64,000 bases of DNA from Escherichia coli (GTDB taxonomy: Bacteria > Pseudomonadota > Gammaproteobacteria > Enterobacterales > Enterobacteriaceae): assembly GCF_024502345.1 (NCBI RefSeq), contig NZ_JALDNN010000001.1. One strand, given 5' to 3'. The first letter of the stretch is position 1. Every line of letters starts with the position of its first letter. The notes beneath the pieces are model-generated. The model worked only from the letters and a program-made list of their open reading frames with translations. It had not been told where the DNA came from and did not search any database. Positions 3,031-48,757 of this stretch are shown here, piece after piece. Both the position numbers and the translations under genes were made by a program.

Positions 3031-3228
3031 AACTCACTCCCTGTTCTTTATCGTTATATAAAAGTTTATATATTGAATATTTAGCGCGCTAACAATAGAG
3101 GGAGTCTACCCATTTTGGGTTAAGAATTATTAATCCATATCAATAGAAGGGTATGAGTAATAAGGTGGGATTATGTTGTATGTTCAAATCGCCGGATGTG
3201 TCGTATCCGGCGTTCAGTCGATAATGTA

Positions 3229-3534
3229 TTACTGCGGTTCGGCAGGCGCGCCATCCTGGGTAGACTGCGCGGGAGCAGAGACGTTACCGCTGGTGGTGCG
3301 GGTGTAGAGAATTTTATGCGTATCATTAGCACAATGCCCGACGACCTGGGAATCAGGCTGATCAACCTGGTCATTGGGTACAATACTTAACGTGAAGCTG
3401 CTTTCGGGTACGCCATTATTGATAATGCGCTGTGATATATCGCTCTGTATGCGCTCACAGGATCCCGGCGCGGCGAGTACCGCGGGTGAGGCGAGGGCGA
3501 GCAGAAGCGCGGCACAGCAGGTTGAGAGTTTCAT
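3229..3534 (-). CDS. ynfD: small secreted protein YnfD (DUF1161)
   Basis: ORF 3229..3576; internal Met gives 101-aa product MKLSTCCAALLLALASPAVLA... with signal peptide, matching remembered YnfD. Confidence 0.8.
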   Translation of the reverse strand: MKLSTCCAALLLALASPAVLAAPGSCERIQSDISQRIINNGVPESSFTLSIVPNDQVDQPDSQVVGHCANDTHKILYTRTTSGNVSAPAQSTQDGAPAEPQ

Positions 3535-3641
3535 CATAAGCTCCTTACGCGAAGATAACTTCTTTAAGCATAGCATTTAACGTGTAAAGTACTGTATTTG
3601 CTACTATGATTGAGAATCATCTCTACTCTCTGGTGACTGTT

Positions 3642-4352
3642 GTGAAATACAAATTACTACCATGCTTACTCGCGATATTCCTCACAGGATGTGACCGCAC
3701 AGAGGTAACACTTTCATTTACCCCTGAGATGGCCAGTTTCTCTAATGAATTCGATTTTGATCCGCTGCGTGGTCCGGTAAAAGATTTCACTCAGACATTA
3801 ATGGATGAGCAAGGTGAAGTGACGAAACGTGTTTCTGGGACTTTGTCGGAAGAAGGCTGTTTTGATTCACTCGAATTACTGGATCTGGAAAATAATACCG
3901 TGGTCGCTCTGGTACTGGACGCCAATTATTACCGTGATGCCGAGACGCTGGAGAAGAGAGTACGTTTACAGGGAAAATGCCAGCTAGCAGAATTACCTTC
4001 TGCCGGGGTGAGTTGGGAAACCGATGATAATGGCTTCGTGATTAAAGCCAGCAGCAAACAAATGCAGATGGAATATCGCTATGATGATCAGGGTTATCCA
4101 CTGGGTAAAACCACGAAAAGTAACGACAAAACATTATCTGTCAGCGCCACGCCATCAACGGACCCGATCAAAAAATTAGATTACACAGCGGTTACTTTAC
4201 TGAATAATCAACGAGTTGGTAATGTAAAACAGAGCTGTGAATATGACAGTCACGCCAATCCGGTGGACTGTCAGCTGATCATTGTTGATGAAGGAGTAAA
4301 ACCCGCCGTCGAACGGGTTTACACCATCAAAAATACGATCGATTATTATTAA
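3642..4352 (+). CDS. ynfC: UPF0257 lipoprotein YnfC
   Basis: ORF 3606..4352; lipobox LTGC; GTG at 3642 gives the 236-aa MKYKLLPCLLAIFLTGC... form; start codon uncertain (ATG 3606 alternative). Confidence 0.75.
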   Translation: MKYKLLPCLLAIFLTGCDRTEVTLSFTPEMASFSNEFDFDPLRGPVKDFTQTLMDEQGEVTKRVSGTLSEEGCFDSLELLDLENNTVVALVLDANYYRDAETLEKRVRLQGKCQLAELPSAGVSWETDDNGFVIKASSKQMQMEYRYDDQGYPLGKTTKSNDKTLSVSATPSTDPIKKLDYTAVTLLNNQRVGNVKQSCEYDSHANPVDCQLIIVDEGVKPAVERVYTIKNTIDYY

Positions 4353-4354
4353 TG

Positions 4355-4915
4355 CTATTGTGCGGTCGGCTTCAGGAGAGTCTGACCCGGTGTTTTGTGC
4401 TCTGCCAGATACTGATGCTGGAATATACACATGCGAATGGCATTACGATATTGACCATTAATAAAGAACTCGTGCATCAATTCACCTTCAACCGTAAAGC
4501 CAAGCTTGCGGTAAATGTGAATCGCTTTTTCATTCTCTTTATCGACGATCAGATACAGCTTATAGAGATTGAGAACGGTGAAGCCATAGTCCATTGCTAA
4601 TTTGGCGGCACGGGTTGCCAGACCTTTCCCCTGATACTCCGGGGAGATAATTATCTGAAATTCTGCCCGGCGATGTACATGGTTAATTTCCACCAGCTCC
4701 ACCAGACCGGCTTTTTCGCCGTCACATTCCACCACAAAGCGTCGTTCGCTCTGATCGTGAATATGCTTATCATACAGATCAGAGAGTTCAACAAAGGCTT
4801 CGTAGGGTTCCTCAAACCAGTAACGCATCACACTGGCGTTATTGTCGAGTTGATGTACATAGCGTAAATCTTCACGCTCCAGCGGGCGTAGCTTAACACT
4901 GTGGGCGCTTGGCAT
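4355..4915 (-). CDS. speG: spermidine N1-acetyltransferase
   Basis: 186-aa [44 protein letters not shown]... matches SpeG (GNAT family). Confidence 0.95.
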
Positions 4916-4949
4916 AACGTGTCCTTACATTCCTTAAATCAATAACAGG

Positions 4950-5291
4950 TTAGGGGGTAATAACGCGGCCAGTTCGACGGTCCAGGCAGCGCAAAGTATT
5001 TGGCTCCCAGTAGGCATTGATGTTGGCGCTTTGCTCACATTTATCGCGGTTATCAAAAGCGGCGTCGGCTTTATCCCACTCTTTTTCAGTGCGTTTATTC
5101 ACTTTCTGACGCAGATTGCGCGTGTCATTCCATTGCTCTTTTTCCATAGCGGCGTGCTGGCGGCTTTGTGCACTGTCGCCAGACTCAATCACCAGTTTGT
5201 TAGTTTCGGCATGAACAGTTGTGCTCAGTGCCAGTGCGCAAGGCAGCAGAAAAGCGAGCAGGCCGATTCGTTTGCTGAGAGTGATTTTCAT
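4950..5291 (-). CDS. ynfB: UPF0482 secreted protein YnfB
   Basis: 113-aa ORF with N-terminal signal peptide; position between speG and ynfA as in K-12. Confidence 0.85.
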
Positions 5292-5425
5292 AATTCATTC
5301 CCTGTATGAATGATTAAAGGTGATTCTACACCATCCACTGCGAACGCAAAACGTACCAGGAGGGTGTTTATATTGATGATATTATGTCGCCCTATAACTA
5401 TACATGATGTCAATAAGTGACAAAG

Positions 5426-5752
5426 ATGATTAAAACAACGTTACTATTTTTTGCTACTGCGCTGTGTGAAATTATTGGATGCTTTCTGCCCTGGTTGTGG
5501 TTAAAACGAAACGCCAGTATCTGGCTGTTGCTTCCGGCGGGGATTTCACTGGCGCTGTTTGTCTGGTTGTTAACGTTGCATCCAGCGGCGAGTGGGCGTG
5601 TTTACGCGGCTTATGGTGGCGTTTATGTCTGCACGGCGTTGATGTGGCTGCGCGTTGTGGATGGCGTGAAACTGACTCTTTATGACTGGACGGGTGCGTT
5701 GATTGCGCTTTGCGGCATGTTGATCATTGTTGCGGGCTGGGGGCGCACGTAG
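5426..5752 (+). CDS. ynfA: UPF0060 inner-membrane protein YnfA
   Basis: ORF 5417..5752; Met at 5426 gives 108-aa [26 protein letters not shown]... four-TM small membrane protein. Confidence 0.85.
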
Positions 5753-5957
5753 GAACATAAATCCATTTTATCAATAAGATAAGAGGAAGTGTCAGCTGAC
5801 AAAAGGTATTCTATTTCATCTTTTGTCAACCATTCACAGCGCAAATATACGCCTTTTTTTGTGATCACTCCGGCTTTTTTCGATCTTTATACTTGTATGG
5901 TAGTAGCTCAGTTGCGTAGATTTCATGCATCACGACAAGCGATGCAAGGAATCGAAC

Positions 5958-7172
5958 ATGAAGATCGTAAAGGCTGAAGTTTTTGTTACCTGTCCGGGGC
6001 GTAATTTCGTCACATTAAAAATCACCACTGAGGACGGTATTACGGGCCTTGGGGATGCCACCCTCAATGGACGTGAGCTTTCCGTGGCCTCTTATTTGCA
6101 GGATCACCTTTGTCCGCAGCTTATTGGTCGCGATGCGCACCGTATCGAAGATATCTGGCAGTTTTTCTATAAAGGTGCTTACTGGCGTCGCGGTCCGGTT
6201 ACGATGTCGGCCATTTCAGCGGTTGATATGGCGCTGTGGGATATTAAAGCCAAAGCTGCCAACATGCCGCTTTACCAGTTACTCGGCGGCGCGTCTCGTG
6301 AAGGGGTGATGGTTTATTGCCATACCACCGGTCACAGTATTGATGAAGCTCTGGATGATTATGCCCGTCATCAGGAGCTGGGATTCAAAGCCATCCGCGT
6401 GCAGTGCGGAATCCCTGGTATGAAAACCACCTACGGCATGTCGAAAGGTAAAGGTCTGGCTTATGAACCCGCAACCAAAGGACAGTGGCCGGAAGAGCAG
6501 CTGTGGTCGACGGAGAAATACCTCGATTTCATGCCGAAATTGTTTGACGCGGTACGTAACAAGTTTGGTTTTAATGAACATTTGCTGCATGACATGCACC
6601 ATCGCTTAACGCCTATTGAAGCGGCGCGCTTTGGTAAAAGCATTGAAGATTATCGCATGTTCTGGATGGAAGACCCGACGCCTGCGGAAAACCAGGAATG
6701 CTTCCGTCTCATTCGCCAACATACCGTCACACCCATCGCAGTGGGTGAAGTCTTCAACAGCATCTGGGACTGCAAACAACTGATTGAAGAGCAACTCATC
6801 GATTATATCCGCACCACGCTGACCCATGCAGGCGGAATTACCGGTATGCGCCGGATTGCCGATTTTGCTTCGCTGTATCAGGTACGTACTGGCTCACACG
6901 GTCCTTCCGATTTGTCACCAGTCTGCATGGCTGCGGCGCTGCACTTTGATCTGTGGGTCCCCAATTTCGGTGTCCAGGAGTACATGGGTTATTCCGAACA
7001 AATGCTCGAAGTCTTCCCGCACAACTGGACTTTCGATAACGGCTATATGCATCCGGGAGACAAACCGGGTCTTGGCATCGAATTCGATGAAAAGCTGGCG
7101 GCGAAATATCCCTATGAACCTGCTTATCTGCCAGTCGCACGTCTGGAAGATGGCACGCTGTGGAACTGGTAA
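5958..7172 (+). CDS. rspA: starvation-sensing protein RspA, mannonate dehydratase-like enolase-superfamily enzyme
   Basis: ORF 5925..7172; ATG at 5958 gives [40 protein letters not shown]... (404 aa). Confidence 0.9.
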
Positions 7173-7183
7173 GGAGTAAGGTA

Positions 7184-8203
7184 ATGAAAAGCATTTTAAT
7201 TGAAAAACCGAATCAACTGTCGATTATCGAACGTGAAATACCCACCCCGTCAGCGGGTGAAGTACGAGTAAAAGTGAAACTTGCCGGAATTTGTGGTTCA
7301 GATAGCCATATTTACCGTGGGCATAATCCTTTTGCGAAATATCCGCGCGTCATTGGTCATGAATTCTTTGGCGTCATTGATGCGGTGGGTGAAGGTGTGG
7401 AAAGCGCCAGAGTCGGTGAACGCGTTGCTGTCGATCCGGTGGTCAGCTGTGGGCATTGCTATCCGTGCTCTATAGGTAAGCCGAACGTTTGTACGACACT
7501 TGCTGTATTAGGTGTGCACGCTGACGGTGGTTTCAGTGAATATGCCGTGGTTCCGGCAAAAAATGCGTGGAAAATTCCTGAAGCAGTGGCCGATCAATAT
7601 GCGGTGATGATCGAACCTTTTACCATTGCGGCTAACGTTACCGGTCATGGTCAACCGACTGAAAATGATACCGTTCTGGTTTATGGTGCCGGTCCAATCG
7701 GCCTGACGATCGTTCAGGTATTAAAAGGCGTCTATAACGTTAAAAATGTGATTGTTGCCGATCGCATTGATGAACGACTGGAAAAAGCGAAAGAGAGCGG
7801 GGCAGACTGGGCGATTAATAACAGCCAGACACCGCTTGGCGAGATTTTCGCTGAAAAAGGCATCAAGCCGACATTAATTATCGATGCGGCTTGTCATCCT
7901 TCTATCCTGAAAGAGGCCGTAACGCTGGCTTCTCCAGCGGCACGTATTGTATTGATGGGCTTCTCCAGTGAACCGTCTGAAGTGATTCAGCAAGGAATTA
8001 CCGGAAAAGAACTCTCTATTTTCTCTTCACGCTTAAATGCAAATAAATTTCCGGTTGTTATCGACTGGTTAAGTAAAGGGTTAATTAAACCAGAAAAATT
8101 AATTACCCATACGTTTGATTTCCAGCATGTTGCTGATGCCATTAGTTTATTTGAACAGGATCAAAAACATTGCTGCAAAGTCTTACTCACTTTTTCTGAA
8201 TAA
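7184..8203 (+). CDS. rspB: starvation-sensing protein RspB, Zn-dependent alcohol dehydrogenase family
   Basis: ORF 7160..8203; ATG at 7184 after aggagtaagg RBS gives MKSILIEKPNQLSII...; GHE..G and Cys ligand motifs; 339 aa. Confidence 0.9.
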   Translation: MKSILIEKPNQLSIIEREIPTPSAGEVRVKVKLAGICGSDSHIYRGHNPFAKYPRVIGHEFFGVIDAVGEGVESARVGERVAVDPVVSCGHCYPCSIGKPNVCTTLAVLGVHADGGFSEYAVVPAKNAWKIPEAVADQYAVMIEPFTIAANVTGHGQPTENDTVLVYGAGPIGLTIVQVLKGVYNVKNVIVADRIDERLEKAKESGADWAINNSQTPLGEIFAEKGIKPTLIIDAACHPSILKEAVTLASPAARIVLMGFSSEPSEVIQQGITGKELSIFSSRLNANKFPVVIDWLSKGLIKPEKLITHTFDFQHVADAISLFEQDQKHCCKVLLTFSE

Positions 8204-8260
8204 TACCAATAACGGCGAGTAAGTAGTACGCATCTTACCTCTTTTTTAGAGATAACCATT

Positions 8261-9628
8261 ATGACAATAGAAAAACATGAAAGAAGCACTAAGGATTTGG
8301 TGAAAGCAGCAGTATCGGGATGGCTGGGCACTGCGCTTGAATTTATGGATTTCCAGTTATATTCGCTCGGCGCAGCGTTAGTGTTTCATGAAATATTTTT
8401 TCCTGAATCATCAACGGCAATGGCGTTAATTTTGGCAATGGGAACCTACGGTGCAGGTTATGTGGCGCGTATTGTCGGAGCATTTATTTTCGGCAAAATG
8501 GGCGACAGAATAGGGCGTAAAAAAGTGCTCTTTATTACCATCACCATGATGGGGATCTGTACCACCTTAATTGGTGTGTTACCGACCTATGCACAGATTG
8601 GTGTTTTTGCCCCCATCTTGCTGGTGACGCTGCGTATTATTCAGGGGTTGGGTGCAGGTGCGGAAATTTCCGGTGCCGGTACGATGCTGGCGGAATATGC
8701 ACCAAAAGGTAAGCGCGGAATTATCTCCTCATTTGTAGCTATGGGAACTAACTGCGGAACCTTGAGCGCAACGGCAATCTGGGCCTTTATGTTCTTCATT
8801 CTCAGTAAAGAGGAACTGCTGGCGTGGGGATGGCGTATACCGTTCCTGGCGAGCGTTGTCGTGATGGTCTTTGCTATCTGGTTACGTATGAATCTGAAAG
8901 AAAGCCCGGTCTTTGAGAAGGTTAATGACAGCAACCAACCCACAGCAAAACCTGCACCTGCTGGTAGCATGTTCCAGAGCAAATCCTTCTGGCTGGCAAC
9001 AGGGCTGCGTTTTGGTCAGGCGGGTAACTCCGGGTTAATTCAGACTTTCCTTGCAGGCTATTTAGTGCAGACGTTATTGTTTAACAAAGCAATTCCAACA
9101 GATGCATTGATGATTAGTTCGATTCTCGGCTTTATGACCATTCCGTTCCTTGGTTGGTTATCCGATAAAATTGGTCGCCGGATCCCGTATATTATTATGA
9201 ATACCTCCGCGATTGTGCTGGCATGGCCAATGCTTTCTATCATTGTAGATAAAAGCTATGCCCCGAGCACCATTATGGTTGCACTGATTGTGATTCATAA
9301 CTGTGCGGTGCTGGGATTATTTGCTCTGGAAAACATTACCATGGCAGAAATGTTCGGCTGTAAAAACCGCTTTACCCGGATGGCTATTTCTAAAGAAATT
9401 GGTGGTCTTATCGCTTCCGGTTTTGGTCCTATCCTGGCGGGTATTTTCTGCACCATGACGGAATCCTGGTATCCGATCGCCATTATGATCATGGCATATT
9501 CAGTAATTGGTTTAATCTCTGCGCTGAAAATGCCAGAGGTGAAAGACCGTGATTTAAGTGCGCTGGAAGACGCTGCGGAAGATCAACCGCGTGTTGTAAG
9601 AGCTGCGCAACCTTCCAGAAGTCTGTAA
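8261..9628 (+). CDS. ydfJ: MFS metabolite:H+ symporter YdfJ, apparently intact
   Basis: 455-aa ORF with ~12 predicted TM segments; located immediately after rspB. Confidence 0.8.
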   Translation: MTIEKHERSTKDLVKAAVSGWLGTALEFMDFQLYSLGAALVFHEIFFPESSTAMALILAMGTYGAGYVARIVGAFIFGKMGDRIGRKKVLFITITMMGICTTLIGVLPTYAQIGVFAPILLVTLRIIQGLGAGAEISGAGTMLAEYAPKGKRGIISSFVAMGTNCGTLSATAIWAFMFFILSKEELLAWGWRIPFLASVVVMVFAIWLRMNLKESPVFEKVNDSNQPTAKPAPAGSMFQSKSFWLATGLRFGQAGNSGLIQTFLAGYLVQTLLFNKAIPTDALMISSILGFMTIPFLGWLSDKIGRRIPYIIMNTSAIVLAWPMLSIIVDKSYAPSTIMVALIVIHNCAVLGLFALENITMAEMFGCKNRFTRMAISKEIGGLIASGFGPILAGIFCTMTESWYPIAIMIMAYSVIGLISALKMPEVKDRDLSALEDAAEDQPRVVRAAQPSRSL

Positions 9629-9716
9629 ATCCTCAATCCCTTCTCTTACCGGAGAGGGGATTTTTATTCATATAACAAAACATATAGCTTGCCATATTTA
9701 TATTTAAGGAATTGTT

Positions 9717-11177
9717 ATGGGAAATAATTTGTTATCAGCAAAAGCGACACTCCCTGTTTATGATCGTAATAACCTGGCCCCAAGAATTATTCATTTAGGC
9801 TTTGGTGCATTTCACCGTGCGCATCAGGGCGTGTATGCCGATATTCTTGCTACAGAACATTTCAGTGACTGGGGATATTATGAGGTCAACTTAATCGGCG
9901 GCGAACAGCAAATTGCCGATTTACAACAGCAAGATAATCTTTATACCGTTGCGGAAATGTCGGCCGATGCGTGGACGGCTCGCGTCGTTGGCGTCGTTAA
10001 AAAAGCCTTGCACGTACAGATGGATGGCTTAGAAACCGTGTTGGCTGCGATGTGTGAACCGCAAATCGCGATTGTCTCTCTGACAATCACCGAAAAAGGG
10101 TATTTCCACTCTCCGGCGACCGGACAGTTAATGCTCGATCACCCGATGGTCGCTGCCGACGTGCAAAATCCCCACCAGCCGAAAACAGCAACAGGGGTGA
10201 TTGTTGAGGCGCTGGCCCGCCGTAAAGCGGCAGGACTTCCCGCATTTACCGTCATGTCATGTGACAACATGCCAGAAAACGGTCATGTTATGCGTGACGT
10301 TGTCACTTCATACGCGAAAGCTGTTGATGTAAAACTGGCACAATGGATCGAAGATAACGTGACTTTCCCATCAACAATGGTGGACCGTATTGTGCCCGCA
10401 GTGACAGAGGATACGCTGGCGAAAATCGAACAACTTACCGGTGTGGGCGATCCTGCGGGCGTTGCCTGTGAACCTTTCCGCCAGTGGGTAATAGAAGATA
10501 ACTTTGTTGCCGGACGTCCAGAATGGGAAAAAGCGGGAGCCGAACTGGTTAGTGATGTGCTGCCTTATGAAGAGATGAAGTTGCGCATGCTCAACGGCAG
10601 TCATTCATTCCTGGCGTATTTGGGTTATCTTGCTGGATATCAGCACATTAATGACTGCATGGAAGATGAACATTATCGTTATGCGGCGTATGGCTTGATG
10701 TTGCAGGAACAAGCGCCGACGCTGAAAGTGCAGGGCATTGATTTGCAAGATTACGCTAACCGATTAATTGAACGCTATAGCAACCCGGCGTTACGTCATC
10801 GAACCTGGCAGATTGCGATGGATGGTAGCCAGAAATTGCCACAGCGGATGTTGGATTCTGTTCGCTGGCATCTGGCGCATGACAGCAAGTTCGATCTGCT
10901 GGCGCTGGGCGTCGCGGGTTGGATGCGTTATGTCGGTGGTGTTGATGAACAGGGAAATCCGATAGAAATCAGTGACCCACTGTTACCTGTTATTCAGAAG
11001 GCTGTACAAAGTAGTGCCGAAGGGAAAGCGCGCGTCCAGTCATTGCTGGCGATTAAGGCAATCTTTGGTGATGATTTGCCAGACAATAGCTTGTTTACTG
11101 CAAAAGTGACGGAAGCGTACTTGTCTTTATTAGCGCATGGCGCGAAAGCGACCGTGGCGAAATATTCCGTGAAGTAA
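9717..11177 (+). CDS. ydfI: mannitol dehydrogenase-family oxidoreductase YdfI
   Basis: 486-aa ORF; N-terminal Rossmann [10 protein letters not shown] motif typical of long-chain mannitol/mannonate dehydrogenases. Confidence 0.85.
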
Positions 11178-11205
11178 AAAAAGCAATGCCGCCATCGGCG
11201 GCATT
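11175..11205 (-). terminator. intrinsic terminator of ydfZ (9-bp stem aatgccgcc/ggcggcatt followed by U-tract on minus strand)
   Basis: Perfect hairpin 11185..11205 with A-run 11175..11181 on plus strand = U-run after hairpin on minus strand. Confidence 0.6.
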
Positions 11206-11212
11206 CACACAC

Positions 11213-11416
11213 TTAGTTCATGCCGAGACGAATCAGGTCCAGAGGTGCCAGTTTCTCTTCACAACCTTCAACAACTACGGTTTTTCCGCGGCGGATTTGC
11301 TCAGCGGTCAGACCTTCAGTATCAATCGACAGGATCTTGCCAGTGTGACCGGTGCCGCTAACCATAACACGGCTGCCAGTGGTGATTGCGTTACGGTTAC
11401 GATCGTAGGTCGTCAT
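11213..11416 (-). CDS. ydfZ: small protein YdfZ (putative selenium-binding, DUF1471-like)
   Basis: 67-aa [48 protein letters not shown]... matches remembered YdfZ. Confidence 0.85.
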
Positions 11417-11593
11417 AGGTGTTTTCTCCTTTCTGATTTACAGTCGAAGCCCACGTAACGGGCGCAATATAAATACTCCTGTCGAGTGAAATATTTTTTG
11501 TTTTTGATCAAGCTCACATCTTTTTTGATGCATGCATGAGCCGTAAGGCGGGGGGAAAAGCCTCTCATCCCGGATGGGATAAGAGTAAATGAA

Positions 11594-12280
11594 TTACTCT
11601 TCGCTAAACCAGTCGCTGTTTTCCTGGCGGATCTGGCGCACGGATTCGCTGATTTCCTGCAAATGTTGCGTCATTGCACGTTCTACCGCATCGCCATCAC
11701 GTTTTTGCAGGGCAGAGAAAATATCAAGATGCTGGCGTAACAGCATTTCTGGTGGAGAAACATGGTCGAAACTCATATAGCGCACGCGATCAACGGTCGC
11801 TTTCAGGTTCTCAATGGTATCCCACGCCAGTTGACAGTCGGCAATCTGCGTCAGGAGTTGATGGAAGTTGTCATCAAGTTCAAAAAAATCATCCAGTTGC
11901 TTGCGCTCAATGGCAATGCGTTGCTGGTGAAGATTTTGTTCCAGTTGGTAGCACTGGCTTTCGGTAATCATGCTCGCCGCCCGACGCGCCACCGCGCACT
12001 CAATGGCCTGACGGATAAAACTGCCGTTGCGCACCTGGGCCATGGAAATTTTGTTGACGTAGCTGCCACGCTGTGGACGAATTTGAATCAGGCCGTTTTC
12101 CGCCAGTTTAATAAAGGCTTCACGAACCGGCTGGCGTGACACATTGAAACGAACAGAAACTTCTTTTTCCGACAACGGTGTGCCTGGAGCAATCAGGCAA
12201 TGGACAATGTCGCGACGAAGGATACGATAAATTTGCTGATTGACAGGCTGTGTGGGATTAAGTTGCGTTTCGACGGTCAT
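11594..12280 (-). CDS. rspR: GntR/FadR-family transcriptional regulator RspR (YdfH)
   Basis: 228-aa ORF; N-terminal winged-HTH GntR signature and FCD-type C-terminal domain; position adjacent to rspAB-ydfJI. Confidence 0.85.
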
Positions 12281-12368
12281 TCGTTCTTGCTTGTGAGTGA
12301 GTTAACTGCATGAGTCTACCACTTTTTTGTGACAAGCAATAACCCGGCAGTTACGCCGGGTATAAAAA

Positions 12369-13115
12369 TTACTGACGGTGGACATTCAGTCCGGCATAGC
12401 TTTGGGTAACCGGCATCATTTCCAGGGTATTGATATTGACGTGAGCAGGCAGCGTTGACACCCACCAAACGGCTTCGCTGACATCTTCTGGCGTCAATGC
12501 AACGGTATTTTGATAGGTTTTTTCCGCTTTACCGTCATCGCCTTTAAAGCGGACATTGGAAAACTCGGTGCCACCCACCAGACCCGGTTCGATGTCGGTG
12601 ACGCGCACCGCCGTACCATGCAGGTCCGTACGCAGATTCAGGCTAAACTGACGAACAAACGCTTTCGTCGCACCGTAAACGTTACCACCGGCATACGGCC
12701 AGCTACCTGCCGTTGAGCCAATGTTAATAATATGACCATGATTACGTTCAACCATACCCGGTAAGACGGCGCGCGTCATATATACCAGGCCTTTGTTGTT
12801 GGTATCAATCATCGTTTCCCAGTCTTCAATGCTGGCTTTATGCGCAGGCTCCATGCCCAACGCCAGGCCGGCATTATTTACCAGGATATCAATATTGCTC
12901 CACTCGGCAGGGAGCGATGCCAGCATCTCTTCAATAGCGGCGCGGTTGCGAACGTCCAGTTGGGCGATGTACAGATTATCTCCCAGTTCGTCTTTTAACT
13001 CCTGCAACCGTTCCTGGCGACGGCCAGTGGCGATAACTTTATGCCCTTGTTGAATAAAACGACGAGTAATGCATTCACCAAAACCTGCCGTTGCTCCAGT
13101 TACTAAAACGATCAT
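12369..13115 (-). CDS. ydfG: NADP-dependent 3-hydroxy acid dehydrogenase (SDR family) YdfG
   Basis: ORF 12369..13130; Met at 13115 gives 248-aa MIVLVTGATAGFGECITRRF...; TGxxxGxG and YxxxK SDR motifs. Confidence 0.9.
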   Translation of the reverse strand: MIVLVTGATAGFGECITRRFIQQGHKVIATGRRQERLQELKDELGDNLYIAQLDVRNRAAIEEMLASLPAEWSNIDILVNNAGLALGMEPAHKASIEDWETMIDTNNKGLVYMTRAVLPGMVERNHGHIINIGSTAGSWPYAGGNVYGATKAFVRQFSLNLRTDLHGTAVRVTDIEPGLVGGTEFSNVRFKGDDGKAEKTYQNTVALTPEDVSEAVWWVSTLPAHVNINTLEMMPVTQSYAGLNVHRQ

Positions 13116-13251
13116 CTCACTGTTCCTCAACGCTTTTGTGTGTCAATAACATAGCACGTGATGCTTAAGAGCGGGTAATACTGGTTTGCAAGATTGCACT
13201 CCGTTATCAGTAAGCCTACGCTATGGAACACCTCGCGTTCAGGAGAAGAAA

Positions 13252-15297
13252 ATGACAACAATGAATCCTTTCCTTGTGCAAAGCACACTGCCGTATCTGG
13301 CTCCCCATTTTGATCAAATTGCCAATCATCACTATCGCCCGGCATTCGATGAGGGAATGCTGCAAAAGCGGGCAGAAATTGCTGCCATCGCGCTTAACCC
13401 GCAAACACCTGATTTCAATAATACTATTCTGGCACTGGAACAAAGCGGAGAATTACTTACCCGCGTTACCAGCGTCTTTTTTGCGATGACTGCGGCGCAT
13501 ACCAATGATGAATTACAGCGTCTTGATGAACAGTTTTCCGCTGAACTGGCGGAACTGGCTAATGATATCTATCTGAACGGTGAATTATTCGCGCGGGTAG
13601 ATGCTGTCTGGCAGCGCCGTGAATCCCTGGGGCTTGATAGTGAATCCATCCGCCTGGTGGAGGTGATTTATCAACGTTTTGTCCTTGCCGGAGCCAAACT
13701 TGCACAAGCTGATAAAGCAAAATTAAAAGTACTGAATACAGAAGCTGCGACACTGACCAGTCAGTTTAACCAGCGGTTACTGGCAGCAAATAAATCCGGC
13801 AGTCTGGTTGTGAACGATATCGCGCAGCTGGCAGGAATGAGTGAGCAAGAGATTGCGCTGGCGGCAGAGGCGGCTCGCGAGAAAGGTCTGGATAACAAAT
13901 GGCTGATTCCGCTGCTGAATACCACCCAACAACCGGCGCTTGCCGAAATGCGCGATCGTGCGACGCGTGAAAAACTGTTTATTGCGGGCTGGACGCGAGC
14001 GGAAAAAAGTGATGCCAATGATACCCGCGCTATCATTCAACGTCTGGTGGAGATCCGTGCACAACAGGCAACACTACTTGGTTTTCCTCATTATGCCGCA
14101 TGGAAAATCGCCGATCAGATGGCAAAAACACCTGAAGCAGCACTTAACTTTATGCGGGAAATTGTTCCAGCGGCGCGTCAACGTGCGAGCGATGAATTAG
14201 CCTCCATACAGGCGGTTATCGATAAGCAGCAAGGCGGGTTTAGCGCGCAGCCGTGGGACTGGGCATTTTATGCCGAACAGGTCCGGCGGGAGAAATTTGA
14301 TCTTGATGAGGCGCAGCTCAAGCCATATTTTGAATTAAACACGGTGTTGAATGAAGGTGTATTCTGGACCGCGAATCAGCTCTTCGGTATTAAGTTTGTC
14401 GAACGTTTTGATATTCCTGTCTACCATCCTGACGTTCGGGTGTGGGAAATTTTTGATCATAATGGCGTGGGGCTGGCGTTATTTTACGGTGATTTCTTCG
14501 CCCGTGATTCAAAAAGCGGCGGTGCATGGATGGGCAATTTTGTTGAGCAATCAACGCTTAATGAAACGCATCCGGTAATTTATAACGTCTGCAATTATCA
14601 GAAATCCGCTGCCGGTGAGCCTGCGTTGTTACTCTGGGATGATGTCATAACCTTATTCCATGAATTTGGTCATACGCTGCACGGCCTTTTTGCCCGCCAG
14701 CGTTATGCCACGCTCTCCGGCACCAACACGCCGCGTGATTTTGTCGAATTTCCGTCGCAAATCAACGAACACTGGGCAACGCATCCGCAGGTATTCGCTC
14801 GCTACGCCCGGCATTATCAGAGCGGGGCAGCAATGCCTGACGAACTGCAACAGAAAATGCGTAATGCCAGCCTGTTCAACAAAGGGTATGAGATGAGCGA
14901 ACTGCTTAGCGCCGCACTTCTCGATATGCGCTGGCATTGCCTGGAAGAAAACGAAGCAATGCAGGATGTCGATGATTTTGAATTGCGGGCGCTGGTGGCA
15001 GAAAATATGGATCTTCCTGCTATACCGCCACGCTATCGCAGCAGTTATTTTGCCCATATTTTTGGTGGCGGATATGCCGCAGGTTATTACGCTTATCTGT
15101 GGACGCAAATGTTGGCCGATGATGGTTACCAGTGGTTTGTTGAGCAGGGCGGATTAACGCGTGAAAATGGGCTGCGTTTTCGCGAGGCGATCCTTTCCAG
15201 AGGTAACAGCGAAGATCTGGAACGCCTGTATCGACAATGGCGCGGTAAGGCACCTCAGATTATGCCGATGCTGCAACATCGTGGCTTGAACATATAA
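13252..15297 (+). CDS. dcp: peptidyl-dipeptidase Dcp (M3 family zinc metallopeptidase)
   Basis: ORF 13186..15297; ATG 13252 after aggagaagaaa gives MTTMNPFLVQSTLPY...; HEFGH zinc-binding motif present. Confidence 0.9.
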   Translation: MTTMNPFLVQSTLPYLAPHFDQIANHHYRPAFDEGMLQKRAEIAAIALNPQTPDFNNTILALEQSGELLTRVTSVFFAMTAAHTNDELQRLDEQFSAELAELANDIYLNGELFARVDAVWQRRESLGLDSESIRLVEVIYQRFVLAGAKLAQADKAKLKVLNTEAATLTSQFNQRLLAANKSGSLVVNDIAQLAGMSEQEIALAAEAAREKGLDNKWLIPLLNTTQQPALAEMRDRATREKLFIAGWTRAEKSDANDTRAIIQRLVEIRAQQATLLGFPHYAAWKIADQMAKTPEAALNFMREIVPAARQRASDELASIQAVIDKQQGGFSAQPWDWAFYAEQVRREKFDLDEAQLKPYFELNTVLNEGVFWTANQLFGIKFVERFDIPVYHPDVRVWEIFDHNGVGLALFYGDFFARDSKSGGAWMGNFVEQSTLNETHPVIYNVCNYQKSAAGEPALLLWDDVITLFHEFGHTLHGLFARQRYATLSGTNTPRDFVEFPSQINEHWATHPQVFARYARHYQSGAAMPDELQQKMRNASLFNKGYEMSELLSAALLDMRWHCLEENEAMQDVDDFELRALVAENMDLPAIPPRYRSSYFAHIFGGGYAAGYYAYLWTQMLADDGYQWFVEQGGLTRENGLRFREAILSRGNSEDLERLYRQWRGKAPQIMPMLQHRGLNI

Positions 15298-19495: not shown

Positions 19496-20395
19496 ATGTC
19501 GCGAAAAGATGGGGTGTTGGCGCTACTGGTAGTGGTCGTATGGGGGCTAAATTTTGTGGTTATCAAATTGGGGCTTCATAACATGCCACCGCTGATGCTG
19601 GCCGGTTTGCGCTTTATGCTGGTCGCTTTTCCGGCCATCTTTTTTGTCGCACGACCGAAAGTACCACTGAATTTGCTGTTGGGGTATGGATTAACCATCA
19701 GCTTTGCGCAGTTTGCCTTTCTGTTCTGCGCCATTAACTTTGGTATGCCTGCTGGACTGGCTTCGCTGGTGTTACAGGCACAGGCGTTTTTTACTATCGT
19801 GCTTGGCGCGTTTACTTTCGGTGAGCGACTGCATGGCAAACAATTGGCGGGGATCGCCTTAGCGATTTTTGGCGTACTGGTGTTAATCGAAGATAGTCTG
19901 AACGGTCAGCATGTGGCGATGCTCGGCTTTATGTTGACCCTGGCGGCAGCATTTAGTTGGGCGTGTGGCAACATCTTCAATAAAAAGATCATGTCGCACG
20001 CAACGCGTCCGGCGGTGATGTCGCTGGTAATCTGGAGCGCATTAATCCCAATCATTCCCTTCTTTGTTGCCTCGCTGATTCTCGATGGTTCCGCAACCAT
20101 GATTCACAGTCTGGTCACTATCGATATGACCACTATCTTGTCTCTGATGTATCTGGCTTTTGTGGCGACAATTGTTGGTTATGGGATCTGGGGAACACTA
20201 CTTGGACGCTATGAAACCTGGCGGGTTGCACCGTTATCGTTACTGGTGCCTGTAGTCGGACTGGCAAGTGCGGCACTATTGTTGGATGAACGCTTAACGG
20301 GTCTGCAATTTTTCGGTGCGGTGCTCATTATGACCGGGCTGTATATCAATGTATTTGGCTTGCGGTGGCGTAAAGCGGTAAAGGTTAGAGGCTAA
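19496..20395 (+). CDS. eamA: cysteine/O-acetylserine exporter EamA (DMT superfamily)
   Basis: 299-aa ORF MSRKDGVLALLVVVVWGLNFVVIKLGLHNMPPLMLAGLRF... with two EamA repeats. Confidence 0.9.
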   Translation: MSRKDGVLALLVVVVWGLNFVVIKLGLHNMPPLMLAGLRFMLVAFPAIFFVARPKVPLNLLLGYGLTISFAQFAFLFCAINFGMPAGLASLVLQAQAFFTIVLGAFTFGERLHGKQLAGIALAIFGVLVLIEDSLNGQHVAMLGFMLTLAAAFSWACGNIFNKKIMSHATRPAVMSLVIWSALIPIIPFFVASLILDGSATMIHSLVTIDMTTILSLMYLAFVATIVGYGIWGTLLGRYETWRVAPLSLLVPVVGLASAALLLDERLTGLQFFGAVLIMTGLYINVFGLRWRKAVKVRG

Positions 20396-20400
20396 ACCAT

Positions 20401-20433
20401 ACGCACAGAATGTGATGTCAGCACTCTGTGCGT
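20401..20433. terminator. hairpin between convergent eamA and island regulator (acgcacaga / tctgtgcgt)
   Basis: 9-bp inverted repeat with 15-nt loop followed by ctgcttta. Confidence 0.35.
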
Positions 20434-20438
20434 CTGCT

Positions 20439-21137
20439 TTATCGCGGGAAAAAGTACTTTACCTGGAACTCGAAAATATTGCTGTAAAGTAACGAATAAT
20501 CCAGCGGAACAGAGTTACTGTCCACAGCCTGGGTCTGAATTTTAAGTATGGGATCCCGTGGGCTGATCCGTAAAATACTGGCGATTTCTGGGGTAGGAAA
20601 AGTAGGGGAGAAAGTTTCAAAGGTGCCAATGATTTTGATCCCGCATTCGTTCTCAATATACGAAAATTTGGATTTTTGCATATGTGCTACGGTTAAATCA
20701 GGAAAACGTGCCACTGACATCCACGTTTCTTCTAATTGTGCTGCATTATCCTCAATGAATCGCAGTCTCTTTATGTAATAAACCTGCTCACCAGTTACTA
20801 AATTCAGCTCAGTCGCAATAGTAGGTGAAGCATCCTGCACTTCAAATTTCATAATCTGACTCCCTGCCTCTTTGCCGCTTTTATGCGCAATTTCACTGAA
20901 ACTGTTCATGTGATCAATGTGTGCAACAAAATTCTTTTTTTGAATGTATGTTCCTGAACCATGCTTTCTGTGAATAATTCCTTCGCCTTCCAGCAAGGAT
21001 AATGCCTTACGCAGGGTATTACGCGAAACATTATAACGAACTGCGAGTTCAGCTTCTGATGGCAACAAATCACCAACATGCCATGAATAGCCATTGATCT
21101 CGGATTTAAGTAAGCGGGCAATCTTTTGAAAAATCAC
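20439..21137 (-). CDS. GntR/HutC-family transcriptional regulator (winged HTH + UTRA effector domain)
   Basis: 232-aa ORF; N-terminal ...LPSEAELAVRYNVSRNTLRKALSLLEGEGIIHRKHGSGTYI GntR signature; divergent from PTS operon. Confidence 0.8.
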   Translation of the reverse strand: MIFQKIARLLKSEINGYSWHVGDLLPSEAELAVRYNVSRNTLRKALSLLEGEGIIHRKHGSGTYIQKKNFVAHIDHMNSFSEIAHKSGKEAGSQIMKFEVQDASPTIATELNLVTGEQVYYIKRLRFIEDNAAQLEETWMSVARFPDLTVAHMQKSKFSYIENECGIKIIGTFETFSPTFPTPEIASILRISPRDPILKIQTQAVDSNSVPLDYSLLYSNIFEFQVKYFFPR

Positions 21138-21335
21138 TTTTGCACCTTTTAAGAGCCATTGAAAACAAGGGGTTGAGTCCTGATTGGTTTATCGTATGGC
21201 CGAGTCGTTTAATTAACACCCTGATGTTGAACAACTTTATTACTGTATTACTGTGATCAATGTACCAGGATGTATAGCTACTGCGGGATATGATATTTAC
21301 ACAATGTAGTCTGTTATATACCAGTAAGGGAAAAT

Positions 21336-21647
21336 ATGAAAAAGATATTGTTAGTTTGCGCTGCGGGCATGTCAACCAGTATGCTGGTTAAACGTATGAT
21401 TGATCATGCTAACGCTATTTCACTTGAAGTTAATATTTCCGCATTGGCGATTGCAGAGGCTAAAGGGAAAATTAAAAATAACGAAGTTGATGTTGTTTTA
21501 CTTGGCCCGCAAGTTCGCTTTCAGAAACCGGAGATTGAAGCCGTTGCACAGGGGAAAATGCCTGTATCCGTTATCGAGATGAAAGACTATGGCACCATGA
21601 ACGGACAGGCAGTTCTTGAATTTGCGATGAAACTACTGCAAGAGTAA
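21336..21647 (+). CDS. PTS lactose/cellobiose-family EIIB component
   Basis: 103-aa ORF MKKILLVCAAGMSTSMLVKRM... with phospho-Cys motif CAAGMSTS. Confidence 0.85.
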   Translation: MKKILLVCAAGMSTSMLVKRMIDHANAISLEVNISALAIAEAKGKIKNNEVDVVLLGPQVRFQKPEIEAVAQGKMPVSVIEMKDYGTMNGQAVLEFAMKLLQE

Positions 21648-21760
21648 GAATCTAATATTATTAAACTATTACCTGAACTAACTTTTCACACATCATAAAA
21701 TGGATATGGCATACATGCTTTATTGGGATGTATAAATATCCAGAACAGCAGGTATAAAAA

Positions 21761-23083
21761 ATGGGATTAATGGCCTCATTCGAACGTGGAATGGAACGTT
21801 TTCTTGTTCCAGTTGCTATCAAGTTAAACTCACAAAAACATGTTGCAGCGGTGAGAGATGGATTCGTTTTTACGTTTCCAATTATCATGGCAAGTTCATT
21901 AATTATATTAATTAACTTTGCCATATTATCGCCAGACGGTTTTATTGCCGGATTACTGCATCTGAACAGCATTTTCCCCAACCTTGAAAAAGCACAAGCT
22001 ATTTTTACTCCGGTAATGAATGGTTCTGTAAATATCATGTCAATTATGATTGCTTTCCTGGTCGCCAGAAATATGGCGATTAGCTATGAGCAAGATGATC
22101 TTTTATGCGGATTAACGGCAATAGGAGCATTTTTTATTGTTTATACACCATATCAGATGATAGATGGACAAGCATTCCTGACGACCAAATATCTCGGCGC
22201 GCAGGGGTTGTTTGTTGCTGTTATCGTTGCATTGATCACCAGTGAAATATTTTGTCGCTTAGCTCGAAACCCAAAAATCACCATAACGATGCCGGCAGCT
22301 GTACCTCCTGCGGTAGCGCGTTCATTTAAAGTTTTATTGCCAATATTTTTTGTTATGGTGTTCTTTTCCGCACTTAATTATTGCCTGACACTGATATCCC
22401 CGGCAGGATTAAACGATCTCATTTACACATTAATCCAGACGCCGCTCAAACATATGGGAACGAATATCTTTGCGGTAATTATCCTGGGGGCTGTGGGTAA
22501 TTTCCTCTGGGTGCTGGAGATCCACGGACCTAATACCACGTCGGCAATTCGAGAAACCGTTTTTTCTGAGGCTAATCTGGAGAATCTCTCCTGGGCCGCT
22601 CAACACGGCACTACCTGGGGCGCGCCATATCCGATTACCTGGACTTCTATTAATGATGCATTCGCCAACTGCGGCGGTTCAGGTATGACGTTGGGGTTAT
22701 TGTTGGCTATTTTTATCGCATCTAAGCGTGCGGAATACCGTGATCTGGCAAAAATGTCATTTATCCCCGGTATTTTCAATATCAATGAACCGATAATGTT
22801 CGGCCTTCCTATTGTACTTAACCCCATTATGATGGTGCCGTTTATTCTGGTTCCCATTGTTAACTGTGCCATTGGTTACTTCATTGTTTCGATGGAAATT
22901 ATTCCACCGGTTGCTTATGCCGTGCCCTGGACTACGCCCGGACCTTTAATTGCTTTCCTCGGAACCGGGGGAAACTGGCTGGCGTTACTGGTTGGTTTTT
23001 TATGTTTAGGTGTGGCGACAATGATCTATTTACCTTTTGTTATTGCCGCCAACAAGGTCAATAACTTAACAACTAACGGATAA
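21761..23083 (+). CDS. PTS lactose/cellobiose-family EIIC permease
   Basis: 440-aa polytopic membrane ORF immediately after EIIB; family assignment by resemblance to ChbC/CelB-type EIIC. Confidence 0.8.
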   Translation: MGLMASFERGMERFLVPVAIKLNSQKHVAAVRDGFVFTFPIIMASSLIILINFAILSPDGFIAGLLHLNSIFPNLEKAQAIFTPVMNGSVNIMSIMIAFLVARNMAISYEQDDLLCGLTAIGAFFIVYTPYQMIDGQAFLTTKYLGAQGLFVAVIVALITSEIFCRLARNPKITITMPAAVPPAVARSFKVLLPIFFVMVFFSALNYCLTLISPAGLNDLIYTLIQTPLKHMGTNIFAVIILGAVGNFLWVLEIHGPNTTSAIRETVFSEANLENLSWAAQHGTTWGAPYPITWTSINDAFANCGGSGMTLGLLLAIFIASKRAEYRDLAKMSFIPGIFNINEPIMFGLPIVLNPIMMVPFILVPIVNCAIGYFIVSMEIIPPVAYAVPWTTPGPLIAFLGTGGNWLALLVGFLCLGVATMIYLPFVIAANKVNNLTTNG

Positions 23084-23104
23084 TCCCATTTACACAGAAA
23101 GGAG

Positions 23105-23422
23105 ATGTTGATGTTTGCAGATGAAGAACTTGTTATGGAGTTACTGGTCAACGCGGGACAGGCTCGTTCTGATGCGATGGAAGCCATACGTTGTGCCGGG
23201 AAAAAAGACTGGCAGGGCGCAACTCAGCTAATGGCCAGTTCTGAATCTGCCTGTCTTCAGGCACATAAGATTCAGACCGCGTTAATTAGTCAGGATGAAG
23301 GCTGTGGCAAAATAAAAGTTAATTTAATTCTGGTACATGCACAGGATCATTTGATGAATGCGATGTTATGCCAGGATTTAGCCAGGGAAATTATTTCATT
23401 AAGAAAAGAACTCCATGCCTGA
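23105..23422 (+). CDS. PTS lactose/cellobiose-family EIIA component
   Basis: 105-aa ORF with ...LVHAQDHLM... region resembling ChbA; start codon (23105 vs 23111) uncertain. Confidence 0.8.
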   Translation: MLMFADEELVMELLVNAGQARSDAMEAIRCAGKKDWQGATQLMASSESACLQAHKIQTALISQDEGCGKIKVNLILVHAQDHLMNAMLCQDLAREIISLRKELHA

Positions 23423-23468
23423 ATTTTTCCTCCAGTGCGTTAGCTGGAGGAAACTATTACACTCTTAA

Positions 23469-26615
<3,147 letters not shown>

Positions 26616-26671
26616 GACTTCAGGAAGATATTACGGAGATGTCAGGCTCTGTGATCAGAGCCTGACAATAA

Positions 26672-26890
26672 CTACATAGCGTGTTGATTATAATAGGGCA
26701 CGCCGAGCGCATCCGACTTATCACTGCCAGTACCCATGTGATTTAAATCAAACGGTGGTTGTTCCTGCGATGGGGGAACAACCACGACATTGGCACAGGA
26801 AGTAACAACTGGCTGCGTGGTTTGTTCCGCAACGCCCTGCGCGGAAAAGAGAATAAGCGCAGCTGCTATTGCGGATAAAAGCGGTTTCAT
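26672..26890 (-). CDS. marB: multiple antibiotic resistance protein MarB (periplasmic)
   Basis: 72-aa ORF MKPLLSAIAAALILFSAQGVAEQTTQPVVTSCANVVVVPP... Confidence 0.9.
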   Translation of the reverse strand: MKPLLSAIAAALILFSAQGVAEQTTQPVVTSCANVVVVPPSQEQPPFDLNHMGTGSDKSDALGVPYYNQHAM

Positions 26891-31193: not shown

Positions 31194-32075
31194 TCATTGG
31201 TAACCCTGTTTTGTCGAGTCAGGCACATCCAGTAGTTGAATAAATGCCTCGAGCGGACGCGTTTTCGCACCACGACGCCAGACCAGCCAGGTTGTTAGCC
31301 AACGCCATTGCTCAGCTAACGGCCACGCTTCAACCTGGTGATGCCCCGGCATACTTTCCAGCATAGAGCGCGGAATAAGCGCAATGCCTGCTCCTGCGAC
31401 TACACAGGCCAACATTCCGTGATAAGACTCCATCTCATGGATAGTTCCCGGAGCGGCACCGTCAGCATGAAACCAGCTCTCGAAGTGGCGACGATACGAA
31501 CAATTGGCGCGGAAGGCATAAATGTTACTGCCATTAACCTGACTGGCACGGATTACTGGCGCATGACCTTGTGGCGTGACGATCATCAGCTCCTCGCGGT
31601 ATACCGGTATCCCGTCAATGGCAGTATGGTTAATGGGTCCATCAATAAACGCCGCATTAAGTTTTCCCTCCAGCACACCTTCCAGCATAGTGCCGGAAGG
31701 GCCGGTGGAAAGTGAAAACTGAATTTTGGGATAACGACGGTTGAATTCCGCCAGCGTGGCCGGAATGCGCACTGCTGCGGTGCTTTCCAGCGAACCCAGA
31801 GAAAATAAACCTTGCGGCTCATCGCCAGCGACAACGCTCCGCGCTTCATCCACTAACGCGAGAATTTGTTGGCTATAGCGTAAAAAGTTATGCCCGGCAG
31901 GAGATAGACGTAAACGCTGATTCTCGCGAATAAACAGATCTACCCCCAGTTCTGTTTCCAGCTGGCGTAGACGGGTAGTGAGATTCGACGGCACGCGATG
32001 CACTATTGCTGCAGCCTGCGTAATGCTGCTAGCTTCGGCAACCGCGTTGAACATCTCCAGTTGGGTCAGATCCAT
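31194..32075 (-). CDS. yneJ: LysR-family transcriptional regulator YneJ
   Basis: 293-aa ORF; N-terminal [43 protein letters not shown]; divergent from sad. Confidence 0.85.
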
Positions 32076-40390: not shown

Positions 40391-41266
40391 TTACTGTTTT
40401 TCACTCAGATAGAGTTCATATGCCCGATCAGCCGTTTCGTTATGGTGTACCACCGCCTGTACGGCTTTCATCATTGCCACCGGATGGTCAGACTGGAAAA
40501 TATTACGCCCCATATCCACACCAGAAGCGCCCTGATCGATAGCCTGCCAGCACATTTCCAGCGCCTCGCGCTCCGGTAATTTTTTACCGCCAGCAATAAC
40601 AATGGGTACCGGACATCCGGCAACAATCCGTTCAAAACCTTTTTCGACATAGTAGGTTTTGATAATTTGCGCCCCCATTTCAGCGGCGATTCGAGTCGCG
40701 AGCGAGAAATAACGCTGATCGCGCACCATATCTTTGCCCACGCCAGTCACGGCCATGGTCGGCATTCCCACTTTCATTCCGGCATCAACCAGCTGAATAA
40801 TATTTTTGATCGACTGATGTTCATATTCGCTGCCGATATAAACCTGCGCCGCCACCGCGCAACTGTTCAGGCGCACGGCGTCATCCATCGATAACGCCAC
40901 GGCTTCATTACTTAATTCCGCCAGAATAGAGTTCGCACCTGACGCCCGCAGTACCACCGGCCTATTGGCCGCAGGGGGAACTACGCTGCGCAAAATCCCG
41001 CGCGTACACATTAATACATCGGCATGTTCAAACAGCGGGGCGATATTTATATCAATGCGTTCAAGTCCGGTAGTCGGTCCCTGAAAATAACCATGGTCAA
41101 AAGCCAGCATCACGGTTTTACCCGTTTTCGGATTAAATATCCGCGATAAGCGTGACTGCATTCCCCAATCCAGCGCACCGCAACCTTTCAGGGTAAAAGG
41201 GATATTTTTTTGCGGTTGATCGGTACGAAAATCTTTACCATCTTTAATATCGTCTAAATCTGCCAT
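40391..41266 (-). CDS. lsrF: 3-hydroxy-5-phosphonooxypentane-2,4-dione thiolase LsrF (aldolase fold)
   Basis: 291-aa [31 protein letters not shown]... Confidence 0.9.
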
Positions 41267-41292
41267 AACTTACTCCGGTTAAGTAATGCACA

Positions 41293-42315
41293 TCAGAAAT
41301 CGTATTTGCCGATATTCTCTTTGTTGAATATCACGCGCTCCGGTAACAGTACGATGCCATTACCATCCGCTTCGTAGTCATAGCCCTGGACGCTGTTTGG
41401 CGAGACTTCCACCTGACCTACGCCCTGAATATCCAGCTTGTCGCCCGTTTTCATTGATCCTTTTTTCAATAATGCATCCGCGACATAAACTGAAATTTTG
41501 CCTTGCTGAACCACATCCCACAGGCCAAATTCTTTCACCGTGCCGCGTTCCACATATGGATGCATCACGTTTGGCGTACTGAATCCGACAATCGCAACTT
41601 TGTCATTTTTCAGGTTTTCTGCGGCTTGTGCGGCAGCGGGCAGGGCATTGGCATCGGGGGCGATAATGGCGTCGAGATCGCTATACGCTTTTAATATTCC
41701 TTCTGCGGTTTGTAATGATTTAGTGGCATCGTTATAGCCAAACTGCGTAGTGACAATTTCCCAGCCAGGATGCTCTTTGGCGATTTTCGCTTTCGCTTCT
41801 TTCACCCACTGGTTTTGGTCCGTAACGGTGGGGCTTGAGTAGAAAAACGCGACTTTGGCTTTGTCTTTATTCACCTGACGCGCCGCCATATCCACCAACA
41901 TACCTCCCAACTGGGCGGGCGTTCCCTGATTAATGTAGTAAGAGCGGCACTCCGGTTTAGTATCAGAGTCCCAGGTCAGCACTCTCACACCACGTTGCAT
42001 GGCGCGTTTCAGTGCCGGACACAAGCCATCAGGCGAAACCGCAGAAACGATAATGGCGTTATAACCTTGATTGACGAAGTTATTAATCAACTGTACCTGA
42101 CCAGAAACACTGGGTTCTGTCGGCCCGTCGTAGGTCACATCAACGCCCAGCTCTTTACCCGCTTGTTGTGCGCCGTTGCCACCGCTGGTAAAAAATCCCA
42201 CGCCAACCAGTTTGGGAATAAATGCAATACGCTCTGCGGCCTGCACATTCATAGAGATTGCGGCAATGCCAAGAGCGCTAAGTAAGGCGATTTTCTTAAA
42301 GCGATGAAGTGTCAT
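41293..42315 (-). CDS. lsrB: autoinducer-2 periplasmic binding protein LsrB
   Basis: 340-aa ORF with signal peptide [26 protein letters not shown]. Confidence 0.9.
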
Positions 42316-42326
42316 GAAGATATCCT

Positions 42327-48749: not shown

Positions 48750-48757
48750 TTTCATTG

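Follow-up and report, generated by a model that had tools for sequence, protein, structure and literature searches.

An unoccupied Qin-type prophage attachment site within ydfJ, next to rspB, in an Escherichia coli chromosome

The Qin insertion in K-12 and the cluster in the window

In Escherichia coli, the gene ydfJ has been listed as the insertion site of the cryptic prophage Qin (Archer et al. 2011, PMC3032704), and Qin integration has been described to cost ydfJ 28 codons and its promoter (Ramisetty & Sudhakari 2019, PMC6379469). Furthermore, a lambda-like prophage located 'between ydfJ and rspB' was reported for strain SE11 (PMC2608844). In K-12, rspR and rspAB are parted by the Qin/Kim insertion, which is missing from some E. 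coli strains (Shimada et al. 2021, PMC8249747).

In the genome of K-12 MG1655 (accession number NC_000913.3), the 'cryptic prophage Qin' is annotated at 1632277..1652745, corresponding to 20,469 bp, and the annotated order is a 427-aa ydfJ, Qin, a 36-codon ynfP, a 57-bp gap and rspB. This agrees with the original prediction, according to which approximately 20 kb of Qin separate rspB from ydfJ in K-12. The K-12 YdfJ protein is identical to residues 29–455 of its counterpart in the 64,000-nucleotide stretch of DNA analyzed in this study (the window; 427/427 residues, 100%), and RefSeq lists the 427-aa ydfJ as a CDS carrying no pseudogene flag. The gene ynfP (b4534; 26729–26839 of the K-12 region compared) consists of the first 31 ydfJ codons followed by five Qin codons, its product being MTIEKHERSTKDLVKAAVSGWLGTALEFMDF (YdfJ residues 1–31) and then KSHAC, read from Qin. 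Judged by this composition, ynfP is a by-product of Qin integration and no independent gene. The Qin integrase gene intQ, located at the rspB-side end of the prophage, is a pseudogene. The further claim that Qin disrupts the 5' end of ydfJ was also borne out, since alignment, translation and the published account (PMC6379469) all indicated the removal of 28 codons together with the upstream promoter region; the opposite situation, namely an intact ydfJ in K-12 and a Qin prophage lying elsewhere, was checked and does not hold.

A 5.3-kb block of the window matched complete E. coli genomes with up to 99.9% identity under the labels rspA, rspB, ydfJ and ydfI (megablast, n = 5,426), and the window therefore represents E. 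coli chromosome. The window coordinates of this block were reproduced in the annotation of one collinear RefSeq genome. Genes were named by means of NCBIfam profiles, all four scoring above the curated cutoffs, and the RefSeq annotation of near-identical genomes agreed with these names. On the plus strand, rspA (5958–7172, 404 aa) encodes an enolase-superfamily protein of the low-efficiency D-mannonate dehydratase type (PRK15072, 819.7 bits, cutoff 430), and rspB (7184–8203, 339 aa), ending with the stop codon TAA, encodes a Zn-dependent oxidoreductase (equivalog NF007489, 694.6 bits, cutoff 376). These genes are followed on the same strand by ydfJ (8261–9628, 455 aa), which encodes an MHS-family MFS metabolite/H+ symporter (TIGR00883, 462.9 bits, cutoff 443.45), and by ydfI (9717–11177, 486 aa), assigned to the mannitol dehydrogenase/fructuronate reductase family (NF011611, 646.3 bits, cutoff 603). 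The gene rspR (ydfH; 11594–12280, minus strand) was identified by annotation and encodes the GntR-family repressor of rspAB, its function being taken from PMC8249747. Due to the Qin insertion, the distance between rspR and its target amounts to about 24 kb in K-12, compared to 3.4 kb between rspR and rspB in the window.

Between the rspB stop at 8203 and the ydfJ start at 8261, exactly 57 bp (8204–8260, plus strand) were found in the sequence and the open reading frame list. The predicted 57-bp distance to an uninterrupted 455-codon ydfJ was thereby confirmed, as was the intactness of the transporter gene, which is supported by the open reading frame and by the TIGR00883 score above the cutoff. 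Read from the sequences, this adjacency rests on a comparison of determined sequences, in which chance plays no part.

We consider it about 95% probable that 8204–8260 is an ordinary spacer of the ancestral rspA-rspB-ydfJ-ydfI(-ydfZ)-rspR order, being special only against K-12 and the approximately 58% of genomes carrying a Qin-type prophage in ydfJ codons 26–32. The finding is correct and ordinary, and it is already known: the site, the 28 lost codons, the loss of the promoter and the prevalence were published previously (PMC6379469), as was the proximity of rspR and rspAB in some strains without Qin (PMC8249747). The present analysis adds the core at base level, a connection with free phages of the mEp460 type, updated frequencies and a hairpin between ydfJ and ydfI. 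The main value of the result lies in correct annotation, as it explains the orphan 36-codon ynfP and the 5'-truncated ydfJ in K-12.

Two further regions of the window were recorded during the comparison. A block of approximately 6.3 kb between eamA and marB (20386–26669), encoding a GntR regulator, lactose/cellobiose-type PTS IIB/IIC/IIA components, a carbohydrate porin and a 6-phospho-beta-glucosidase, was detected in CFT073 and in 2,494 out of the 5,426 complete E. coli genomes, and is missing from the genome most closely related in the rsp region. For approximately 12 kb at 40996–53304, no counterpart was found in NZ_CP104123 except for one 178-bp inverted match; beside lsrF, NZ_CP104123 carries IS1 and a truncated autotransporter of the ECSE_1600 family.

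The attachment core and its phages

Alignment of the window with the K-12 flanks of Qin (blastn) assigned 3099–8356 to the rspB side and 8338–14632 to the ydfJ side, leaving a 19-bp overlap at 8338–8356. The attachment core anticipated inside ydfJ was thus located, and the window represents the sum of both flanks. The core, TGAATTTATGGATTTCCAG, covers ydfJ codons 26–32 (8338–8356, no strand assigned) and was deduced from this overlap and from comparison of attB, attL, attR and attP as the attB core for Qin/mEp460-type lambdoid phages. Base by base, the attB context reads GCGCT-TGAATTTATGGATTTCCAG-TTATATT, compared to …TGAATTTATGGATTTCAAGAGTCAT… for attL on the rspB side (K-12 and strain A38) and …CACCTGTGAATTATGGATTTCCAGTTATATT… for attR on the ydfJ side. 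The phage copy is one T short in the TTT run (TTT versus TT) and features A in place of C at window position 8354. Accordingly composed of bacterial left and phage right (attL) or of phage left and bacterial right (attR), the two junctions indicate that strand exchange is confined to ATGGATTTC (8345–8353, no strand assigned), which contains the Met29 codon and is bounded by attB/attP differences on both sides. The window contains a single copy of the core, which is duplicated in lysogens, and the empty site equals the left flank of attL joined to the right flank of attR.

Based on these junctions, a Qin-type lambdoid phage would integrate by means of its tyrosine integrase through recombination of attB TGAATTTATGGATTTCCAG with attP TGAATT-ATGGATTTCAAG, the exchange taking place inside ATGGATTTC. 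In the window, where attB is empty, the first 28 codons of ydfJ are preserved together with the ribosome-binding region, and the gene remains physically linked to the rspA promoter repressed by RspR. In lysogens, the first 31 ydfJ codons stay beside rspB as a 36-codon stub (ynfP in K-12), and the rest of the gene is displaced by 20–48 kb, leaving a product of at most 427 aa. In attR, an in-frame TGA is located two codons 5' of the Met29 ATG, and a nearby phage ATG is out of frame. The in-frame TGA implies that the phage supplies no N-terminus and that translation in lysogens can start at Met29 at the earliest, giving a protein of no more than 427 aa; a phage-donated replacement N-terminus of YdfJ, as Rac provides for TtcA, was therefore ruled out.

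Strain A38 harbors a 47.6-kb Qin-like prophage at the same site, comprising all K-12 Qin genes as well as complete terminase, head and tail modules. Its 426-aa tyrosine integrase is encoded 187 bp from the rspB stop and is followed by an excisionase; the same 426-aa integrase was found at the same distance (187 bp) in UTAK-12. The A38 ydfJ gene was called a pseudogene 'missing N-terminus' by PGAP.

To obtain attP, the phage side of the A38 attR was joined to the phage side of the A38 attL, which resulted in the core TGAATT-ATGGATTTCAAG. The rebuilt attP was contiguous in the free phages mEp460_ev081, PhiR42_1, HannyBb and Tritos, with 98.9–99.7% identity across approximately 800 bp, and in the two annotations examined (mEp460_ev081 and Tritos) it is located directly beside the integrase gene. 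The predicted core was seen in the attP alignments of mEp460_ev081 and Tritos, in the latter with one mismatch. Because attP is contiguous in free phages, window positions 8338–8356 are, as far as these alignments indicate, the attB of extant temperate phages and no mere artefact of comparison. Phages of the mEp460/Qin type would thus find a free integration site in the window strain.

The Tritos mismatch, in the attP at about 2900–2920 of the phage sequence, consists of ATGCATTTC in place of ATGGATTTC and is located inside the strand-exchange segment in comparison with attB. Furthermore, approximately 15 records of Stx2a-converting phages (LC7278xx) matched part of the Qin-type arm beside attR at approximately 90% identity, the match being located at the record end, which hints that some Stx2a phages may share the Qin-type arm or attachment site.

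Frequency and ancestry of the empty site

To evaluate the prevalence of the empty site, a 600-bp query centered on the core was compared with the 5,426 complete E. coli genomes. A continuous match, representing attB, was obtained for 2,010 of them (37%), including CFT073 and JJ1886, and evenly sampled results showed that nearly all remaining genomes break at query positions 292–310, corresponding to window 8338–8356. Using 400-bp junction queries, the Qin-type attL junction was detected in 2,707 and the attR junction on the ydfJ side in 3,168 (58%) of the same 5,426 genomes. These counts are consistent with the previously reported occurrence of Qin in 48% of 638 strains (Ramisetty & Sudhakari, PMC6379469). 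The empty state is a minority, yet very common.

Beyond E. coli, one genome per species was scanned using six peptide patterns. Full-length YdfJ orthologues featuring 77–98% identity were found in loci of 80 other Enterobacterales species, among them members of the genera Escherichia, Citrobacter, Enterobacter, Klebsiella, Raoultella, Kluyvera, Buttiauxella, Serratia, Pragia, Gilliamella and others. In 78 out of these 80 loci, rspB directly precedes ydfJ on the same strand, about 45–176 bp separating the two genes, and the most common order is rspA-rspB-ydfJ-ydfI(-ydfZ)-rspR. Judging from the adjacency in 78 of the 80 species, the uninterrupted gene order is certainly ancestral.

The original prediction had regarded the window as the pre-integration state. 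The site is empty and the gene order is ancestral, but the same sequence would be expected from a precisely cured site. A Qin-type prophage may thus once have been present in the lineage and have been excised precisely, a history that we regard as possible, if on the unlikely side. Many occupants keep an intact integrase together with an excisionase, viable phages possessing a matching attP exist, occupancy across E. coli is patchy (37% empty, 58% occupied), and precise excision regenerates exactly the attB seen in the window. What speaks against former occupancy is that neither a scar nor a phage-type base was found, position 8354 being C and the T-run at 8342–8344 consisting of three T's, both of the bacterial type. 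Since precise excision within the 9-bp ATGGATTTC leaves no phage base, the sequence fits a never-occupied as well as a cured history.

Transcription, the transporter and known systems

Shimada et al. 2021 (PMC8249747) established the RspR box ATACnnGTAT and the RspR footprint at rspA. In the window, the sole exact ATACNNGTAT match within the cluster is ATACTTGTAT (5889–5898, plus strand), located in the rspA promoter region 60 bp 5' of the rspA ATG. The spacers 8204–8260 and 9629–9716 contain no RspR box with 0 or 1 mismatch according to the motif scan, and one-mismatch RspR-box matches occur in the window as often as expected by chance. Another exact ATACNNGTAT palindrome, ATACCGGTAT, is located at 31601–31610 inside the ptrR coding region, as deduced from collinearity, and is probably a chance match, 0.7 such matches being expected per window.

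In the 57-bp spacer itself, neither a terminator nor a sigma-70-like promoter match was detected by a crude consensus scan, a type of scan that misses many real promoters, and the RNA fold of the spacer is no better than that of shuffled sequences (z = -0.13). A scan of 5300–12400 against Rfam returned no family. This content fits co-transcription of ydfJ with rspAB, and ydfJ would accordingly be expressed from the rspAB transcript in strains featuring the empty site.

In the spacer separating ydfJ from ydfI, the terminator scan revealed a terminator-like element (9635–9670, plus strand) consisting of a perfect 12-bp hairpin, AATCCCTTCTCT/AGAGAGGGGATT (9635–9662), and a U-rich tail. When 9620–9725 (106 nt) was folded, the centroid structure (-17.3 kcal/mol) retained no helix other than this hairpin. 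The modeled element looks like an intrinsic terminator, in which case ydfI would represent a separate or attenuated unit; since the hairpin separates both genes, ydfI may sit outside the ydfJ transcript. The gene arrangement thus suggests rspA-rspB-ydfJ as the likely transcription unit, with ydfI being read through or separately promoted. The proposed control of rspAB-ydfJI by RspR consequently holds for the rspA promoter, where the box at 5889–5898 coincides with published evidence (PMC8249747), and was not supported further downstream, as no box precedes ydfJ or ydfI and the hairpin precedes ydfI. RspR control of ydfJ would need read-through from the rspA promoter.

Alternatively, ydfJ could possess a promoter of its own in or near the 57-bp spacer and be located outside the rspAB transcript, so that prophage insertion would cost no promoter. 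RegulonDB-style descriptions and PMC8249747 name only an 'rspAB' operon, delineated in K-12, in which ydfJ is separated from rspAB, and the limited sensitivity of consensus scans noted above also leaves room for such a promoter. However, the spacer lacks a sigma-70-like match, a terminator and structure, it is short (45–176 bp) and flanked by genes on a shared strand in 78 of the 80 species, and Qin integration was said to cause the loss of the ydfJ promoter (Ramisetty & Sudhakari, PMC6379469), all of which makes a separate promoter quite unlikely. That the adjacency is an assembly artefact, with a prophage having collapsed out of the window, has a virtually negligible probability and was rejected, since 2,010 complete genomes, CFT073 and JJ1886 among them, share the identical junction, which also occurs in other genera, and the ydfJ open reading frame is uninterrupted and colinear.

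Returning to the reading of an ordinary spacer upstream of an intact gene, the consequences of prophage insertion for the YdfJ protein were deduced from conservation. The TIGR00883 match extends over YdfJ residues 23–418 and covers profile positions 1–400. Across 56 orthologues, residues 14–28 (VKAAVSGWLGTALEF) are 94% identical to the window and as conserved as residues 29–60, and residues 1–13 are 64% identical; part of the conservation seen at residues 27–34 stems from the search itself, as the six patterns by which the orthologues were gathered included EFMDFQLY. Of the twelve transmembrane segments expected for the MHS family, the first of which should contain a conserved E-F/W-x-D-F motif, a crude hydropathy analysis detected the later ones, residues 14–42 being only moderately hydrophobic, and the LEFMDF motif is present in YdfJ. 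The truncated protein is devoid of 15 residues that are highly conserved within the first hydrophobic segment, Glu27 of LEFMDF among them. Given the profile start at residue 23 and the conservation of residues 14–28, truncation removes a conserved part of this segment, along with the native start of translation and the promoter located upstream. On these grounds, the truncated ydfJ allele likely loses its function, and the transporter of the rsp sugar-acid cluster would remain potentially functional in the window strain.

In 2014, a cryptic pathway for L-gulonate in CFT073 was reportedly described by Wichelecki and colleagues; in this pathway, RspB is said to oxidize L-gulonate to D-fructuronate and a YdfI homologue reportedly reduces D-fructuronate to D-mannonate. 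The enzymology was reportedly done in CFT073, a strain other than that of the window. Searching the literature for L-gulonate together with rspB returned incidental mentions only. The gene context suggests that YdfJ may import the sugar acid on which RspB and YdfI act, which makes YdfJ a candidate importer of L-gulonate or another sugar acid.

It could be speculated that Qin-type occupancy of attB represents a strain-level, possibly reversible switch for sugar-acid uptake, a proposal that we regard as doubtful. If it were true, strains featuring the empty site (such as the window strain and CFT073) would take up L-gulonate or a related substrate of RspB and YdfI in an RspR-controlled manner, the approximately 58% of E. 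coli carrying the prophage would be transport-deficient, with the phage targeting the conserved E-F-M-D-F codons, and an intact integrase together with an excisionase could make the switch reversible. The modest remaining interest of the locus lies in relating prophage occupancy to a growth phenotype such as the use of L-gulonate.

Compared with described systems, the locus resembles the K-12 Qin site in position and core, and the published loss of 28 codons matches exactly; the difference is that the window allele is unoccupied, whereas K-12 carries a 20.5-kb decayed prophage with a pseudogenized integrase. The CFT073 cluster rspR/rspA-rspB-ydfJ-ydfI shares the gene order, the 455-aa ydfJ and the 57-bp rspB-ydfJ gap with the window, and no structural difference was found between the two. 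The phages mEp460_ev081, Tritos, HannyBb and PhiR42_1 feature the attP …CCTGTGAATTATGGATTTCAAGAGTCAT… beside a 426-aa tyrosine integrase and an excisionase, as predicted from the prophage ends; in contrast to the prophages, they are free phage genomes, linked to this attB by sequence. Similar to e14 in icd and Rac in ttcA of K-12, where a tyrosine integrase targets a conserved host coding segment, the site is located within a conserved gene; e14 duplicates the 3' end of icd, and Rac alters the N-terminus of TtcA (PMC6379469). Unlike both of them, Qin-type phages provide no replacement 5' end, and ydfJ is left truncated and parted from its promoter.
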